In this document: positions 26,685 to 38,310 of the stretch, piece by piece
Layout of the letters: each line of letters starts with the position of its first letter
How positions within the stretch are numbered: position 1 is the stretch's first letter
From: an uncultured virus (IMG/VR IMGVR_UViG_3300027917_000045)
Taxonomy: Duplodnaviria > Heunggongvirae > Uroviricota > Caudoviricetes
Virus record (IMG/VR): IMGVR_UViG_3300027917_000045
Length of the DNA: 64,000 bases
Reading direction: 5' to 3' (one strand)
Notes under the pieces: generated by a model
The model's input: the letters and a program-made list of their open reading frames with translations, nothing else
Databases searched by the model: none
Told to the model about the DNA's origin: nothing
Made by a program: the position numbers and the translations under genes

Positions 26685-26925
26685 GGCAACGATTCGAGTG
26701 GTAATGGCCCTGAGTGGTGTTGTCTTTAAGTACGAGATCACCGCATCAGATGAACAAAGTTTACAAGCAAAGGCACGGGAACACTGTGCCATGATCGTCG
26801 CAACCGGCTATCGCAACCAGCGGGGCGACACCTATACGCATTGGCCACCGCACCTATTAGCGAAGGTGCAAGCTATCGGCGTTAAGGTGCCGACCGATTA
26901 CCCCGACGAGATTGAAGGCACATGA
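26671..26925 (+). CDS. Small hypothetical protein (MSESKA...)
   Basis: Start within a 19-bp repeat. Confidence 0.55.
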   Translation: MSESKATIRVVMALSGVVFKYEITASDEQSLQAKAREHCAMIVATGYRNQRGDTYTHWPPHLLAKVQAIGVKVPTDYPDEIEGT

Positions 26926-27170
26926 GCGAGAGTAAGGCAGTAGCCGAGTACCGAGAGGCGCTAATGGAACTAGAGTGGGCGGTACGCCGCCATCAGTCGT
27001 CTACTGCCATTGATGATGACGGTCGGGCACGGAATATCGTTGAAGCCGAAGCCCGACTGGACGAGGCCGTTGTGGGGCTTATGGTAGAGTGTGCGTCTTG
27101 GTATGGGCCGATGGACTTAGCGGAGCGTAAAGCCCGATCCCTACTAAGAGGAAAGGAGAAAGGAGAATGA
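26922..27170 (+). CDS. Small hypothetical protein (MSESKA...)
   Basis: ATGA overlap; start within the same 19-bp repeat. Confidence 0.55.
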   Translation: MSESKAVAEYREALMELEWAVRRHQSSTAIDDDGRARNIVEAEARLDEAVVGLMVECASWYGPMDLAERKARSLLRGKEKGE

Positions 27171-27286
27171 GCACACTCGCAATTGTGCTGGCAATAATAA
27201 CGCTTGCGTTCCCTCTCTGGGCTATTAGCGGACACCTATCACGCATAGCCGAACACAAGCGATTTGACAAAACAAACGAACCATGA
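27167..27286 (+). CDS. 39-aa membrane peptide
   Basis: MSTLAIVLAIITLAFPLWAISGHLSRIAEHKRFDKTNEP; AAGGAG SD; ATGA overlap. Confidence 0.5.
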   Translation: MSTLAIVLAIITLAFPLWAISGHLSRIAEHKRFDKTNEP

Positions 27287-27292
27287 TAGGTT
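27264..27292 (+). promoter_or_regulatory. Sigma70-type promoter driving the ncRNA array/Ro60 operon
   Basis: Perfect TTGACA, 17-nt spacer, extended -10 TGn-TAGGTT. Confidence 0.75.
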
Positions 27293-27350
27293 GCGCGTGC
27301 CGTTGAACTCTACCGTTAAGCGGCACACCTCCTTTCGGTTGGGCCAAGAA

Positions 27351-27424
27351 GTAGAGGGCCGGAGTAGATAGGTTATCGTTGATAAGGGATTCAAGCTGAC
27401 TCCTACTACACCCCTAGCCCCTAC
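27351..27424 (+). ncRNA. Y RNA-like element 1 (short insert)
   Basis: GTAG-A-GGGC/GCCCCTAC terminal stem, GGGCCGGA motif, GTAG-A-TAGG/CCTACTAC second stem, AGGTTATCG...ACTCCT junction. Confidence 0.7.
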
Positions 27425-27441
27425 GGCCTATAGAGGGGGAC

Positions 27442-27458
27442 GCTGTTTGAAAACTGAA
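27442..27458 (+). promoter_or_regulatory. rrn-type boxA-like antitermination element
   Basis: GCTGTTTGAAAACTGAA resembles the rRNA operon boxA (GTTCTTTGAAAACT type). Confidence 0.55.
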
Positions 27459-27463
27459 GGTAT

Positions 27464-27595
27464 GTTGGTTGGGACGGAGTGCTTAAGGTTATCGACTATT
27501 AATCGTGTGATATAGGTTCGAGTCCTATCGCTCCTTCGGGAGTGTAGCTCAATGGTAGAGCACAAAACACCTTAGCCGAGACTATTCTAATCAAC
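27464..27595 (+). ncRNA. yrlA: YrlA-type Y RNA (circularly permuted tRNA-like domain on a Ro-binding stem)
   Basis: 11-bp terminal stem GTTGGTTGGGA/TTCTAATCAAC; GCTTAAGG/CCTTAGC stem; T arm ATAGG-TTCGAGT-CCTAT; acceptor stem CGCTCC/GGAGTG closed by TTCG; D arm GCTC-AATGGTA-GAGC. Confidence 0.85.
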
Positions 27596-27603
27596 TTTGT
27601 ATA

Positions 27604-27790
27604 TGGGTGAGTACGGGGGACACTGAGGTTGTTCATCATTAACCTTGACTTATGGAGTAGTGTGAGGACAAAGAATCCAACCAGCTAGTTGGGACAGACC
27701 CTCGATCAAGCAAGACATAGTAACTATACAGCAGTAGTTCCGTTTCACCGTGCATTATCGTACTCAGTGTTAGACAGAGGTACTCACCCA
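27604..27790 (+). ncRNA. Y RNA-like element 3 (187 nt, large non-tRNA insert)
   Basis: Perfect 11-bp TGGGTGAGTAC/GTACTCACCCA, then GACACTGAG/CTCAGTGTT, variant junction AGGTTGTTC; internal stems CTTGA/TCAAG, GAGG/CCTC, CCAAC/GTTGG, AACTA/TAGTT. Confidence 0.65.
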
Positions 27791-27798
27791 AGAAAACT

Positions 27799-27903
27799 AT
27801 CGGGCCGTTGTGACTAGGTTATCGTTAATGGATAACACTTTCTTTTGAACAGAAAACTTGTGGGTTCGAGTCCCACGCCACACCTACCACGCTTTCGCCC
27901 GAT
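27799..27903 (+). ncRNA. Y RNA-like element 4 (normal-order tRNA body)
   Basis: ATCGGGC(C bulge)G/CGCCCGAT; TGTG..TAGG/CCTA.CACG; D arm GTTA-ATGGA-TAAC; TTTCT-TTTGAAC-AGAAA arm; T arm GTGGG-TTCGAGT-CCCAC. Confidence 0.75.
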
Positions 27904-27914
27904 TACATAGAAGA

Positions 27915-27993
27915 GGACGTGGGCCGGAGAGATAAGGTTACCGCTGACGCACAGACATCGACTCCTTATTTCAACCACTTGCCTTTATCGTCC
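27915..27993 (+). ncRNA. Y RNA-like element 5 (short insert)
   Basis: GGACG/CGTCC, GGGC(C bulge)GG/TTGCCT (compare vertebrate Y RNA GGUCCGA/CUUGACU), GAGATAAGG/CCTTATTTC, AGGTTACCG...ACTCCT. Confidence 0.7.
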
Positions 27994-28031
27994 GAAGAGG
28001 AGAGACCTTCACAAGGAGAGGAGTTCTGAAC

Positions 28032-29690
28032 ATGCGTTACCAACAGCACTATTCCACTCGTCACACCCCACAGACCCAGCCCATCCCCGGTAAGAAGATG
28101 GTTGAGATGGAGTCTGGGGGTTTTGCGTATAAGGTAGACAAGTGGACACAGCTGGATCGTTTCCTCATCCTAGGTACGCAGGGTGGAACCTACTATATAG
28201 GGGAGAGGGAGCTCACCGTAAAGAACTGTGATGCAGTAGTGGCCTGTATCAAGGAGGATGGAGTACGTCTGGTCAACAGGGTAGTAGAGGTATCCGATCA
28301 GGGCCTCGCACCCAAGAATGACCCTGCTCTATTCGTCTTGGCTATGGCCTCTGCGTTCGGTGACGAGAAGACTAGAGCGTATGCGTTCGAGGCACTAGAT
28401 CGTGTCGCTCGTATCGGCACCCACCTGTTCCAGTTCTGCGACTTTCGTGAGGCGTTCGCTGGTTGGGGCAGGGGTATGCGCTCTGCTGTATCCAACTGGT
28501 ACACTCGTAAGGAAGAGAGCAGACTGGCTTACCAACTGCTCAAGTACAAGCAGCGTAATGGTTGGAGCCACCGTGATGTGCTACGACTGGCACACCCCAA
28601 GCCTCAGAACGAAACGCAGAATGCCCTGTTCAAGTACACGACTCAGGGTATAGAGAAGATGGAGGTTGAAGAGAGACAGTTCCTACCTAATCAGGTGAAG
28701 GCGTATGAGGAGGTAGCTTACGCCCACCAGAATGATCAGATGAATGTAGAGAGCCTCATTCAGTACATCCAGAGGGACAGGCTCACTCGTGAGATGATCC
28801 CGACTGAGTACCTGAATGATCGCAACGTCATGGCTGCGATGTTGAACGACATGCCCATGCACGCACTGATCAGGAACCTAGGGAACCTGACTCGCATTGG
28901 TGTATTGGCTCCACTGTCTGATAACAGCAAGTACGTAGCAGACAAGCTGGTTGTGGCTGAAGCTATCCACCGCTCTCGACTGCACCCGTTCAGTATCCTT
29001 GCAGCTTCCAGTGTGTATGGACAGGGGCATGGTGCTAGAGGTAGAGGTGAGTGGACCCCTGATCAGCAGATTATGAACGCACTAGAAGCAGCGTTCTACC
29101 TGTCGTTCCAGAACGTGGTGCCTTCTGGTAAGAAGATCGTGTGTGGTATCGACTGGTCCGGTTCTATGGGTGGGCCTCGTAGTTACAGTGGGCGGTACTC
29201 TTACGGTGGGTACGGTATCAACGGTGTCCCCGGTATGAGCCCTGCCTATGGTGCTGCTGCTATGGCACTGATCACCAACGAGACAGAGGATCAGGTGCAT
29301 AACGTGGTGTTCGCAGGCACTATCAAGGACATTAGCCTGCGTAAGGGTATGAAGTTGAGTGAGGTAATGGAACTCACCGCCCGTGGTGTGGGTGAGGGTA
29401 CTGACTGTGCTCTGCCTCTGCGCTATGCCATGTCTTCGGGTATGCCTGCGGTGGATGCGTTCGTGCTTTACACCGACTCTCAATCTTGGCGTGGACCAAA
29501 GCATGTGAGTCAGGTCATAGATATGTACCGTCAGCACTACAGTCACCCGACCAAGCTGGTTGTCGTTCAGATGACGAGCAACGATTACAGTGTGGCTGAT
29601 GCTCAGGATGACCCGCTCAGTCTGAACGTGATCGGGTTCGATACCTCCGCACCTAAGATCATCAGTGACTTTGTTGCTGGGAGGTTCTAA
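28032..29690 (+). CDS. rsr: Ro60/Rsr TROVE + vWA domain RNA-binding protein
   Basis: GGFAYKVDKWTQLDRFLILGTQGGTYY, GWGRGMR, KYKQRNGWSHRDVLRLAHP, ALIRNLG, MIDAS DWSGSM, GTDCALP, YTD, GFD. Confidence 0.95.
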   Translation: MRYQQHYSTRHTPQTQPIPGKKMVEMESGGFAYKVDKWTQLDRFLILGTQGGTYYIGERELTVKNCDAVVACIKEDGVRLVNRVVEVSDQGLAPKNDPALFVLAMASAFGDEKTRAYAFEALDRVARIGTHLFQFCDFREAFAGWGRGMRSAVSNWYTRKEESRLAYQLLKYKQRNGWSHRDVLRLAHPKPQNETQNALFKYTTQGIEKMEVEERQFLPNQVKAYEEVAYAHQNDQMNVESLIQYIQRDRLTREMIPTEYLNDRNVMAAMLNDMPMHALIRNLGNLTRIGVLAPLSDNSKYVADKLVVAEAIHRSRLHPFSILAASSVYGQGHGARGRGEWTPDQQIMNALEAAFYLSFQNVVPSGKKIVCGIDWSGSMGGPRSYSGRYSYGGYGINGVPGMSPAYGAAAMALITNETEDQVHNVVFAGTIKDISLRKGMKLSEVMELTARGVGEGTDCALPLRYAMSSGMPAVDAFVLYTDSQSWRGPKHVSQVIDMYRQHYSHPTKLVVVQMTSNDYSVADAQDDPLSLNVIGFDTSAPKIISDFVAGRF

Positions 29691-30023
29691 ATGCCATACA
29701 TAAACAGAGAAGCTAGGAAGAGATGGGAGAACTCATTGACTAGGATGCAGTATGTGTTCAACGATGAGGGTCCTGTCTATGCAGGAGAACTGAACTATCT
29801 AATTACTAAGATCATTACCTTCTACCTAGAGAAATACGGACTAACCTACGCATCTATTAACAACGTGATGGGAGTTCTCTCTTGTATACCACACGAGATG
29901 TACAATAGGTTGTTCTATCCCTATGAGGTGTACAAGAGACAAGAACACGGGGATGTACTACCCCAGTTCATCGACCTACAAATCAAGGGAAGGGAGAAGC
30001 AAGCCGTTGGATCGCCTGACTAG
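29691..30023 (+). CDS. Conserved phage protein (MPYI...GELNY...; DUF6899-like)
   Basis: MPYI, AGELNYLITKI, PYE..K...GDV pattern. Confidence 0.65.
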   Translation: MPYINREARKRWENSLTRMQYVFNDEGPVYAGELNYLITKIITFYLEKYGLTYASINNVMGVLSCIPHEMYNRLFYPYEVYKRQEHGDVLPQFIDLQIKGREKQAVGSPD

Positions 30024-38189: not shown

Positions 38190-38212
38190 TTCTAGACTAC
38201 CTACTAACCCGC

Positions 38213-38285
38213 GCCCCTGTAGTTTAACAAGTAAAACGTCAGCCTTTCAAGCTGGAGTTCTCCTGTGCAAGTCAGGGCGGGGGCG
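38213..38285 (+). tRNA. tRNA-Glu (UUC), atypical
   Basis: Acceptor GCCCCTG/CGGGGGC; D stem GTTT/AAAC; anticodon arm TCAGC-CTTTCAA-GCTGG; T arm TCCTG-TGCAAGT-CAGGG; no encoded CCA. Confidence 0.75.
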
Positions 38286-38310
38286 TTCACTATCAAGAGG
38301 GAGGTGTAGT

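Follow-up and report, generated by a model that had tools for sequence, protein, structure and literature searches.

Genomic Context of the Ro60 Gene and Layout of the Array

The window, that is, the whole 64-kb stretch of DNA that was analysed, is phage-like, and its nearest record, a 60-kb virus record (G001), carries an identical array and region. A Ro60 gene lies in the window whose product of 552 amino acids matches both TROVE (E 8.8e-49) and vWA_Ro60 (E 4.2e-37), and the 740 bases preceding this gene hold no convincing reading frame and are occupied instead by a row of structured units. At least four of these units, all upstream of Ro60 and on the same strand, are Y-like, and the array is laid out as follows.

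27351..27424, + strand, unit 1: plain Y-like hairpin with GGGCCGGAG and GGUUAUC
27479..27597, + strand, unit 2: YrlA-type permuted tRNA mimic, whose 5' motif starts near 27472
27799..27904, + strand, unit 4, the feature under study: probable Y-type RNA with a normal-order tRNA-like module
27915..27993, + strand, unit 5: plain Y-like hairpin with GGGCCGGAG and GGUUACC
28032..29690, + strand: Ro60 gene, 552 aa

The units start with GGGCCG (units 1, 4, and 5) or GGGACG (unit 2), and in all four of them GGUUAUC, which reads GGUUACC in unit 5, follows a dozen bases after the start motif; the start of Ro60 lies 130 nt downstream of unit 4. Unit 1 matches the Rfam model of nematode stem-bulge RNAs at 22 bits (E 0.077), while unit 2 matches Rfam YrlA (RF02553) at 39 bits (E 6.6e-7), under the gathering score of 69. 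The preliminary description of this DNA had placed two tRNA mimics of opposite topology in one array, and this is indeed the arrangement, with unit 2 being of the permuted YrlA type and unit 4 of normal order. ARAGORN reads unit 2 as tRNA-Asp(atc), since the 'V' hairpin of YrlA-type RNAs, which in many viral ones (L009, L022, L061, L074) carries a 7-nt loop CUNNNAA on a stem of 3-5 bp, resembles an anticodon arm. Moreover, an element of 187 nt with a closing stem of 11 bp (GGGUGAGUAC.../...GUACUCACCC) and several inner hairpins (folding z -1.5) occupies positions 27604-27790 (+), after unit 2 and before unit 4; neither GGGCCG nor GGUUAUC occurs in it, and no Rfam model matches it.

Neither a promoter-like site nor a + strand terminator-like site was found in 26900-28100, and the lack of both within the array suggests a single precursor, so that the units are probably transcribed together with Ro60. 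No RNA-repair gene adjoins Ro60 among the 17 neighbouring frames compared with PHROGs and Pfam. A gene for a DUF6899 protein (29691-30023, +, E 1.9e-20) starts at the base directly after the Ro60 stop codon, and an ordinary gene for tRNA-Glu(UUC) lies farther away, at 38212-38286 (+, 56.3 bits). The sequence of unit 4 is identical in contigs from a second sample and study (X3), and contigs of three DNA runs equal the window wherever they overlap it, so that they offer no natural variants for a test of covariation.

Architecture of Unit 4

The D, anticodon-like, and T arms of unit 4 follow one another in normal 5'-3' order, just where they had been described, and are enclosed by a scaffold made of a terminal stem and an inner helix.

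27800..27805, + strand: 5' strand of the terminal stem, UCGGGC (pair probability at least 0.95)
27810..27818, + strand: 5' strand of the inner scaffold helix, with GUG at 27810-27812 and UAGG at 27815-27818 (helix 2 of the family)
27817..27823, + strand: GGUUAUC motif, common to the array units, viral YrlA-type RNAs, and the family
27824..27836, + strand: D arm, GTTA-ATGGA-TAAC (alternatively 3 bp with a 7-nt loop AAUGGAU, as in the family)
27839..27855, + strand: anticodon-like arm, TTTCT-TTTGAAC-AGAAA, with a 5-bp stem and a 7-nt loop UUUGAAC
27856..27859, + strand: variable region, 4 nt
27860..27876, + strand: T arm, GTGGG-TTCGAGT-CCCAC (pair probability at least 0.97)
27877..27882, + strand: linker between T stem and scaffold helix, 6 nt (2-4 nt in the family)
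27897..27902, + strand: 3' strand of the terminal stem, GCCCGA (pair probability at least 0.95)

The two ends run into a Y scaffold, as had been proposed: UCGGGC is predicted to pair with GCCCGA, beside the Ro60 gene, and this terminal stem of 6-7 bp, together with the inner helices, makes up the long stem from the 5' and 3' ends that is expected of a Y RNA. The GGGCCG at 27802-27807, which overlaps the 5' strand of the stem, is invariant in all 17 aligned relatives. In contrast to this constancy, the remainder of the 5' Ro motif of unit 4 is deviant; the form GNCGAAN0-1G, given for YrlA and YrlB in the available text of Chen et al. 2014 (PMC4201824), does not fit, because unit 4 reads GCCGUUG (CGUU), whereas units 1, 2, and 5 have CGGA. 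GGGCCG itself is retained despite this deviation.

Within the inner helix, GUG pairs with CAC at 27888-27890 and UAGG with CCUA at 27883-27886, at probabilities of 0.44-0.70, and a competing acceptor-like UGUG/CACA pairing beside the T stem is 0.8 kcal/mol above the optimum. A four-way junction, with its closing helix leading into the terminal stem, is retained in every alternative fold. The D loop contains the GG of tRNA positions 18-19; however, ViennaRNA prefers a hairpin of GUUAUC (27818-27823) with GAUAAC (27831-27836), at 0.47-0.82, over the D stem in tRNA register, which receives a probability of 0.04. The TTATCG stretch had been taken to serve as the entry to the D arm, and this is right in part: in the family, the place of positions 8-9 is filled by two further bases (UA) behind GGUUAUC, which are lacking in unit 4. 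The folding energy of unit 4 is weakly unusual (z -2.0), with 6 of 200 shuffles folding equally well.

Relatives in Viral, Metagenomic, and Bacterial DNA

A blastn comparison of the array with 50,697 phage records gave no match, and a scan of viral contigs with the single Ro60 protein yielded no relatives, the best phage Ro60 proteins being ~37% identical to that of the window. Given the lack of a DNA match in deposited phages and this level of protein identity, collections were scanned with a pattern taken from unit 4, in which GCCG, GGTTAYC, and the T loop follow one another, each separated from the next by a gap. The hits among viral contigs were of three kinds, namely many YrlA-type RNAs, several scaffolds with an anticodon-like hairpin and a T arm, and two contigs, L065 and L214, with the full normal-order body. 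L065 presents at 1483-1587 a full cloverleaf in which acceptor helix and stem are continuous, with a Ro60 gene ~300 nt downstream whose product is 46% identical to the window Ro60. L214 carries its copy at 1496-1600, which scores 65 bits with the covariance model R1 described below, and a further unit at 1277-1410.

The unit 4 layout was found at 23 metagenome loci among the 120 matches listed and at five of 57 loci in the genome scan, four of the latter belonging to Verrucomicrobiota and one to a Ca. Acidoferrum assembly. These 28 loci (23 from metagenomes among the matches listed and five from genomes) gave 22 distinct full-length sequences once four that were truncated or without a 3' end and two duplicates had been left out. 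A set of 80 viral loci selected by Ro60 contained no T arm 30-45 nt after GGTTAYC, no Y-flanked ARAGORN call, and no full D-anticodon-T unit by R1, which makes the normal-order class rare in loci of phage Ro60. Over 121 sampled genomes of the phylum of G002, with 32 candidates considered per genome, R1 found G002 alone at E<=1e-10.

Other arrangements were seen on the same kind of scaffold. At L142:2007-2095 and L142:2357-2460, a D-like hairpin with AUGG in its loop is directly followed by the T arm, with no anticodon arm between them, and in L203, L220, L233, and L028 an anticodon-like hairpin and a T arm occur without a D arm. L214 and L233, which are viral records of 164 kb, have their normal-order Y-type units inside a tRNA gene array. 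By eye, L065:1120-1300 holds a YrlA-type mimic apparently in tRNA order, with an open acceptor strand (GGGGCCC), a D arm, a loop-closed Ro-type stem at the position of the anticodon arm, a small hairpin, the T arm, and the 3' strand of the acceptor, which would be a third topology in the L065 array. The modules of the Y scaffold look combinatorial.

Conserved Structure and Covariation in the Family

The family is built of five helices, which are the terminal stem, the inner helix, the D arm, the anticodon-like arm, and the T arm. In its alignment, pairing holds in 93.2% of cells, whereas sliding the partners lowers this to 31-45%; without the added phage copies, both sides change in five pairs, one of them being the first D pair, which goes from A-U to G-C. 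When the family was folded de novo with RNAalifold, the stems and the T arm were recovered, but not the D and anticodon arms. The D loop conserves AAUGG.A, a U precedes the T stem, and a U follows GGUUAUC. In tRNA, contacts join positions 8-14, 15-48, and 18/19-55/56, and by analogy the conserved D-loop and U positions of the family would fit these contacts. The anticodon-like loop, instead, varies among relatives both in sequence and in length (5-8 nt), and such a lack of conservation means that the RNA does not decode.

For the covariance model R1, the 22 sequences of metagenomes and genomes served as the input, with the window excluded. Run over the 64-kb window with filters off, it matched 27799-27904 over model positions 1-106 of 106 (E 1.1e-8) with a score of 41.5 bits, which alone is unspecific, since a genuine tRNA-Lys (L129) reaches 44 bits with R1 as well. 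The next-best match in the window was the true tRNA-Glu, at 17.9 bits. The score of unit 4 is far under the 99-131 bits of family members, from which it differs in that its D arm is shorter and its 3' linker longer (6 versus 2-4 nt). Nevertheless, unit 4 has the GGGC/GCCC terminal stem of the family, its GGUUAUC, and then the D, anticodon-like, and T arms.

A joint alignment of 17 sequences, including the window, L065, and L214, was fitted to the R1 model. In this alignment 94.9% of cells pair, and compensatory changes are present in 17 of the 26 pairs, compared with 6-10 in slid controls and with none of 500 shuffles reaching this value. Since the family pattern was modelled on unit 4 (GCCG, GGTTAYC, and the T loop), ~21 positions match by construction. 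The terminal GCCCG and the GG of the D loop are outside the search pattern, invariant in the family, and present in the window, and it is the features of this kind (terminal GCCCG, D-loop GG, arm sizes, and spacing, all of them found in the window) that carry the argument for family membership.

Relation to tRNA Genes

The Rfam tRNA model (RF00005) matches unit 4 locally, at 27824-27876, over positions 10-63 of its 71 and with no acceptor; the match scores 25.8 bits (E 0.0063 in a search of 901 bases), short of the gathering score of 29. ARAGORN, in turn, reads 27807-27885 as tRNA-Ser(tga), its anticodon falling at the unusual position 40; this reading uses an acceptor-like helix of eight positions with two mismatches, a 3-nt link to the D arm, and a D loop of 11 nt. 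Thus, the partial tRNA hit that had been expected was obtained with Rfam, whereas ARAGORN returned a full tRNA by way of its imperfect helix. The body of unit 4 is not followed by CCA. For the same reason, the statement that a 7-bp acceptor stem and CCA are missing is strictly correct, although an imperfect acceptor-like helix is possible.

The ARAGORN call raises the possibility of a working phage tRNA, either tRNA-Ser(UGA) or a suppressor-like one, with an odd acceptor stem and excised by RNase P and RNase Z. The helix on which such a tRNA would depend has six standard pairs in its eight positions and is stacked on the T stem, the fold containing its core lies only the above-mentioned 0.8 kcal/mol over the optimum, and U33 and a purine at 37 are present in the anticodon-like loop. 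However, the two mismatches of the helix, the link of 3 rather than 2 nt to the D arm, and the 11-nt D loop are irregular, and the Rfam model covers positions 10-63 alone and stays below its gathering score. Bacterial tRNA-Ser carries a long variable arm, which unit 4 lacks together with CCA, and what the relatives conserve is the scaffold and the terminal stem, not the anticodon loop with its length of 5-8 nt. In addition, the window has an ordinary tRNA-Glu elsewhere, with 56.3 bits. A working tRNA is, for these reasons, highly improbable.

A tRNA gene in decay, lying by chance between Y RNA units and without a function of its own, would also explain a sub-threshold Rfam score, and it could account for the divergence of the copy (41.5 versus 99-131 bits) and for a Ro motif that is the most deviant in the array. 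Decay, nevertheless, should not have left three intact arms with zero mismatches in the anticodon and T stems, nor would chance have supplied flanks that are the terminal stem and the GGUUAUC motif of the family in correct register. The terminal stem (GGGCCG, GCCCG) that a decayed gene was expected to lack is invariant in the family, the helices covary among relatives, the layout is found again in bacteria and in two further viral contigs, beside or together with Ro60, and the sequence is identical in the contigs of the second sample and study (X3). Decay hence seems very unlikely too, and unit 4 is not a tRNA gene, intact or decayed.

Annotation of the relatives is affected by the same resemblance. 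Three bacterial members (L408:1515-1582, L401:1492-1560, and L393:1492-1560) exceed the Rfam tRNA gathering score, with 44.7-46.4 bits over model positions 1-71, and their 'acceptor' positions hardly pair. With bacterial members above this threshold and the phage copies labelled tRNA-Ser or tRNA-Phe by ARAGORN, genome and phage annotations will probably list such RNAs among the tRNA genes.

Linkage to Ro60 and Origin of the Two Topologies

A search for homologues near TROVE genes with a covariance model had been suggested, and Ro60 is located ~0.9-2 kb downstream and on the same strand in all five bacterial genomes with a family member. Ro60 is also present in the flanks of metagenome loci L252 and L258. 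Over the N-terminal 170-190 residues contained in the flank, the Ro60 of bacterial loci is 54-56% identical to that of the window, and the full-length proteins of two other bacterial loci are 43-46% identical to it. In phages, the distance between the units and Ro60 can be much larger, reaching 36 kb in L214 and L233 and ~300 kb in L203.

The bacterial loci also contain Yrn1-like, several YrlA-like, and further normal-order units. In L408:640-3074 (Verrucomicrobiia), upstream of Ro60, several tRNAs are accompanied by a Yrn1-like unit (RF01053, 50 bits), three normal-order tRNA-like units, one of which has a GCAA tetraloop at the anticodon position, and YrlA-like units. The RF01053 match of this locus (944-1078) is a different unit from the family member (1497-1602).

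The preliminary description had further supposed that two independent tRNA captures were grafted onto one scaffold. As the family already stands beside Ro60 in bacteria, nothing was captured in this phage. Moreover, both unit types share one layout, with GGUUAUC, a hairpin with a 7-nt loop, a short linker, and a T arm, which makes rearrangement as possible as separate capture. Thus, whereas the architecture had been described correctly, the evolutionary inference drawn from it is unproven.

Proposed Function of the Unit 4 RNA

With the anatomy, family membership, helix covariation, and Ro60 linkage observed, unit 4 is probably the gene for a Y-type noncoding RNA of ~105 nt with a normal-order tRNA-shaped module, located in a phage Ro60 locus; some room is left for the other readings discussed here. 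The 5' and 3' ends of this RNA would pair into a bulged terminal stem with the conserved GGGCCG as its 5' strand. In characterised Y RNAs, Ro60 contacts the 5' strand of the terminal stem, and the ring of the phage Ro60 may likewise bind the stem of unit 4 through GGGCCG. The scaffold helix would then occupy the place of the acceptor stem in the normal-order module, and the GG of the D loop could join the T loop in a tRNA elbow, giving an L-shaped body. In this form, the module could present both elbow and anticodon arm to a partner protein that reads the shape of tRNA, while unit 2, being of the YrlA type, would present the opposite end, acceptor and T. The unit 4 RNA itself, as noted above, does not decode.

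The tRNA-shaped module could have another use, as a processing or stabilising element. It would then act as punctuation of the Y RNA-Ro60 transcript rather than as a tether for Ro60, guiding RNase P, RNase Z, or modification enzymes in the cleavage and protection of a polycistronic transcript. An array in which neither promoter nor + strand terminator was found is compatible with this, and there are precedents in the available text of Chen et al. (PMC4201824), according to which Yrn2, tRNA-Asp, and Yrn1 are made as one precursor, RNase P cuts the YrlA of M. smegmatis, and protection from nucleases is proposed as one role of the tRNA fold. However, punctuation would have no need of a conserved GGGCCG...GCCCG stem, nor of GGUUAUC, a motif that unit 4 has in common with Ro-bound RNAs, and the members in L214, at 36 kb from Ro60, cannot punctuate a Ro60 transcript there. 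A role limited to punctuation is, therefore, rather unlikely for unit 4, and a Y-type RNA that tethers Ro60 is preferred.

A broader proposal, which is a long shot, is that Ro60 loci of phages and bacteria carry a combinatorial toolkit of tRNA mimics, in which the observed modules, of D, anticodon, and T arms, of anticodon and T arms, of D and T arms, and of permuted T, acceptor, and D elements, would be mounted on one Ro60-binding scaffold. The normal-order RNAs would then represent a third, hitherto unrecognised family of Y RNAs, aiming Ro60 and a nuclease at a target or acting as a decoy. Y RNAs tether Ro60 to effector proteins, and, if the proposal is true, the free anticodon arm and the elbow would aim Ro60 with a nuclease (e.g., PNPase) at proteins that grip the anticodon arm, with the host anticodon nucleases of anti-phage defence as an example of proteins that could be targeted or decoyed. 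Apart from this proposal, a class that exposes the anticodon arm rather than the acceptor end makes, with the permuted YrlA beside it in one array, a natural pair of probes to learn which face of the tRNA shape matters.

Comparison with Known Systems

Yrn1 of Deinococcus radiodurans (RF01053) is like unit 4 in several respects. Its 5' and 3' ends form the Ro60-binding stem, as is predicted for unit 4, its gene is upstream of Ro60 on the same strand, and the Rfam consensus and the text available of PMC4201824 give it a normal order, with a D-loop-like stretch, a hairpin at the position of the anticodon arm, and a T arm. However, according to the same text, Yrn1 lacks a complete D stem and has 6 nt in its 'anticodon loop', whereas unit 4 has a paired D arm, an anticodon-like arm of 5 bp and 7 nt, and a variable region of 4 nt. 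The identity of unit 4 with Yrn1 itself was rejected, since 27200-28100 contains no RF01053 match at E<=10 (gathering score 80 bits). According to PMC4201824, the Rsr protein protects those bases of Yrn1 that match the GGGCCG 5' strand, and in Wang et al. 2018 (bioRxiv 10.1101/312249) the tRNA likeness of Yrn1 is called 'less evident'.

YrlA (RF02553), known from Salmonella, Mycobacterium, and mycobacteriophages, shares with unit 4 a scaffold with GGGCCG and GGUUAUC, the T loop, a hairpin with a 7-nt loop before the T arm, the tRNA shape, and the location beside Ro60. Unlike unit 4, YrlA is circularly permuted in the available part of bioRxiv 10.1101/312249, with the T arm followed by a closed acceptor hairpin and the D arm, and the Ro stem leaves it at the position of the anticodon stem, while in unit 4 it does so at that of the acceptor. 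RF02553 gave no match on 27799-27904 at E<=10, the sole YrlA match in the region being unit 2.

With canonical tRNA (RF00005), unit 4 has in common D, anticodon, and T arms of canonical size, U8, the GG of the D loop, a UUCGA T loop, U33, and a purine at 37; instead of a 7-bp acceptor stem and CCA, its ends extend into the 6-bp terminal stem. Among phage systems, Yrl1 and Yrl2 of the Thermus phage phiLo are Y-like RNAs encoded upstream of a phage Ro60, as in the window, and they bind this Ro60 and form complexes with host PNPase (PMC12135203, available portion). In contrast, they are stem-bulge-stem RNAs with a CGAA motif, for which no tRNA-like module is described in that portion of the report (PMC12135203).

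The concept of opposite topologies is already published for Yrn1 and YrlA (PMC4201824), so the novelty of the present array is smaller than the preliminary description had supposed. In the text of that paper available, the T and D arms are oriented differently in YrlA and in Yrn1, the stem-loop that lies between them corresponds to the acceptor stem in one RNA and to the anticodon arm in the other, and both RNAs are considered to be probably of independent origin. A published Y RNA with a complete normal-order tRNA body was not found in our literature search, which supports weakly the claim that none is in print. Subject to the same weak claim on the literature, three aspects may be new, that is, a complete D/anticodon/T body in the Yrn1-type orientation, a family distinct from both RF01053 and RF02553 and without an Rfam model of its own, and a normal-order unit beside a YrlA-type unit in one phage array. 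Unit 4, in this comparison, belongs with the known bacterial Y RNAs, as a subtype that has seldom been described.
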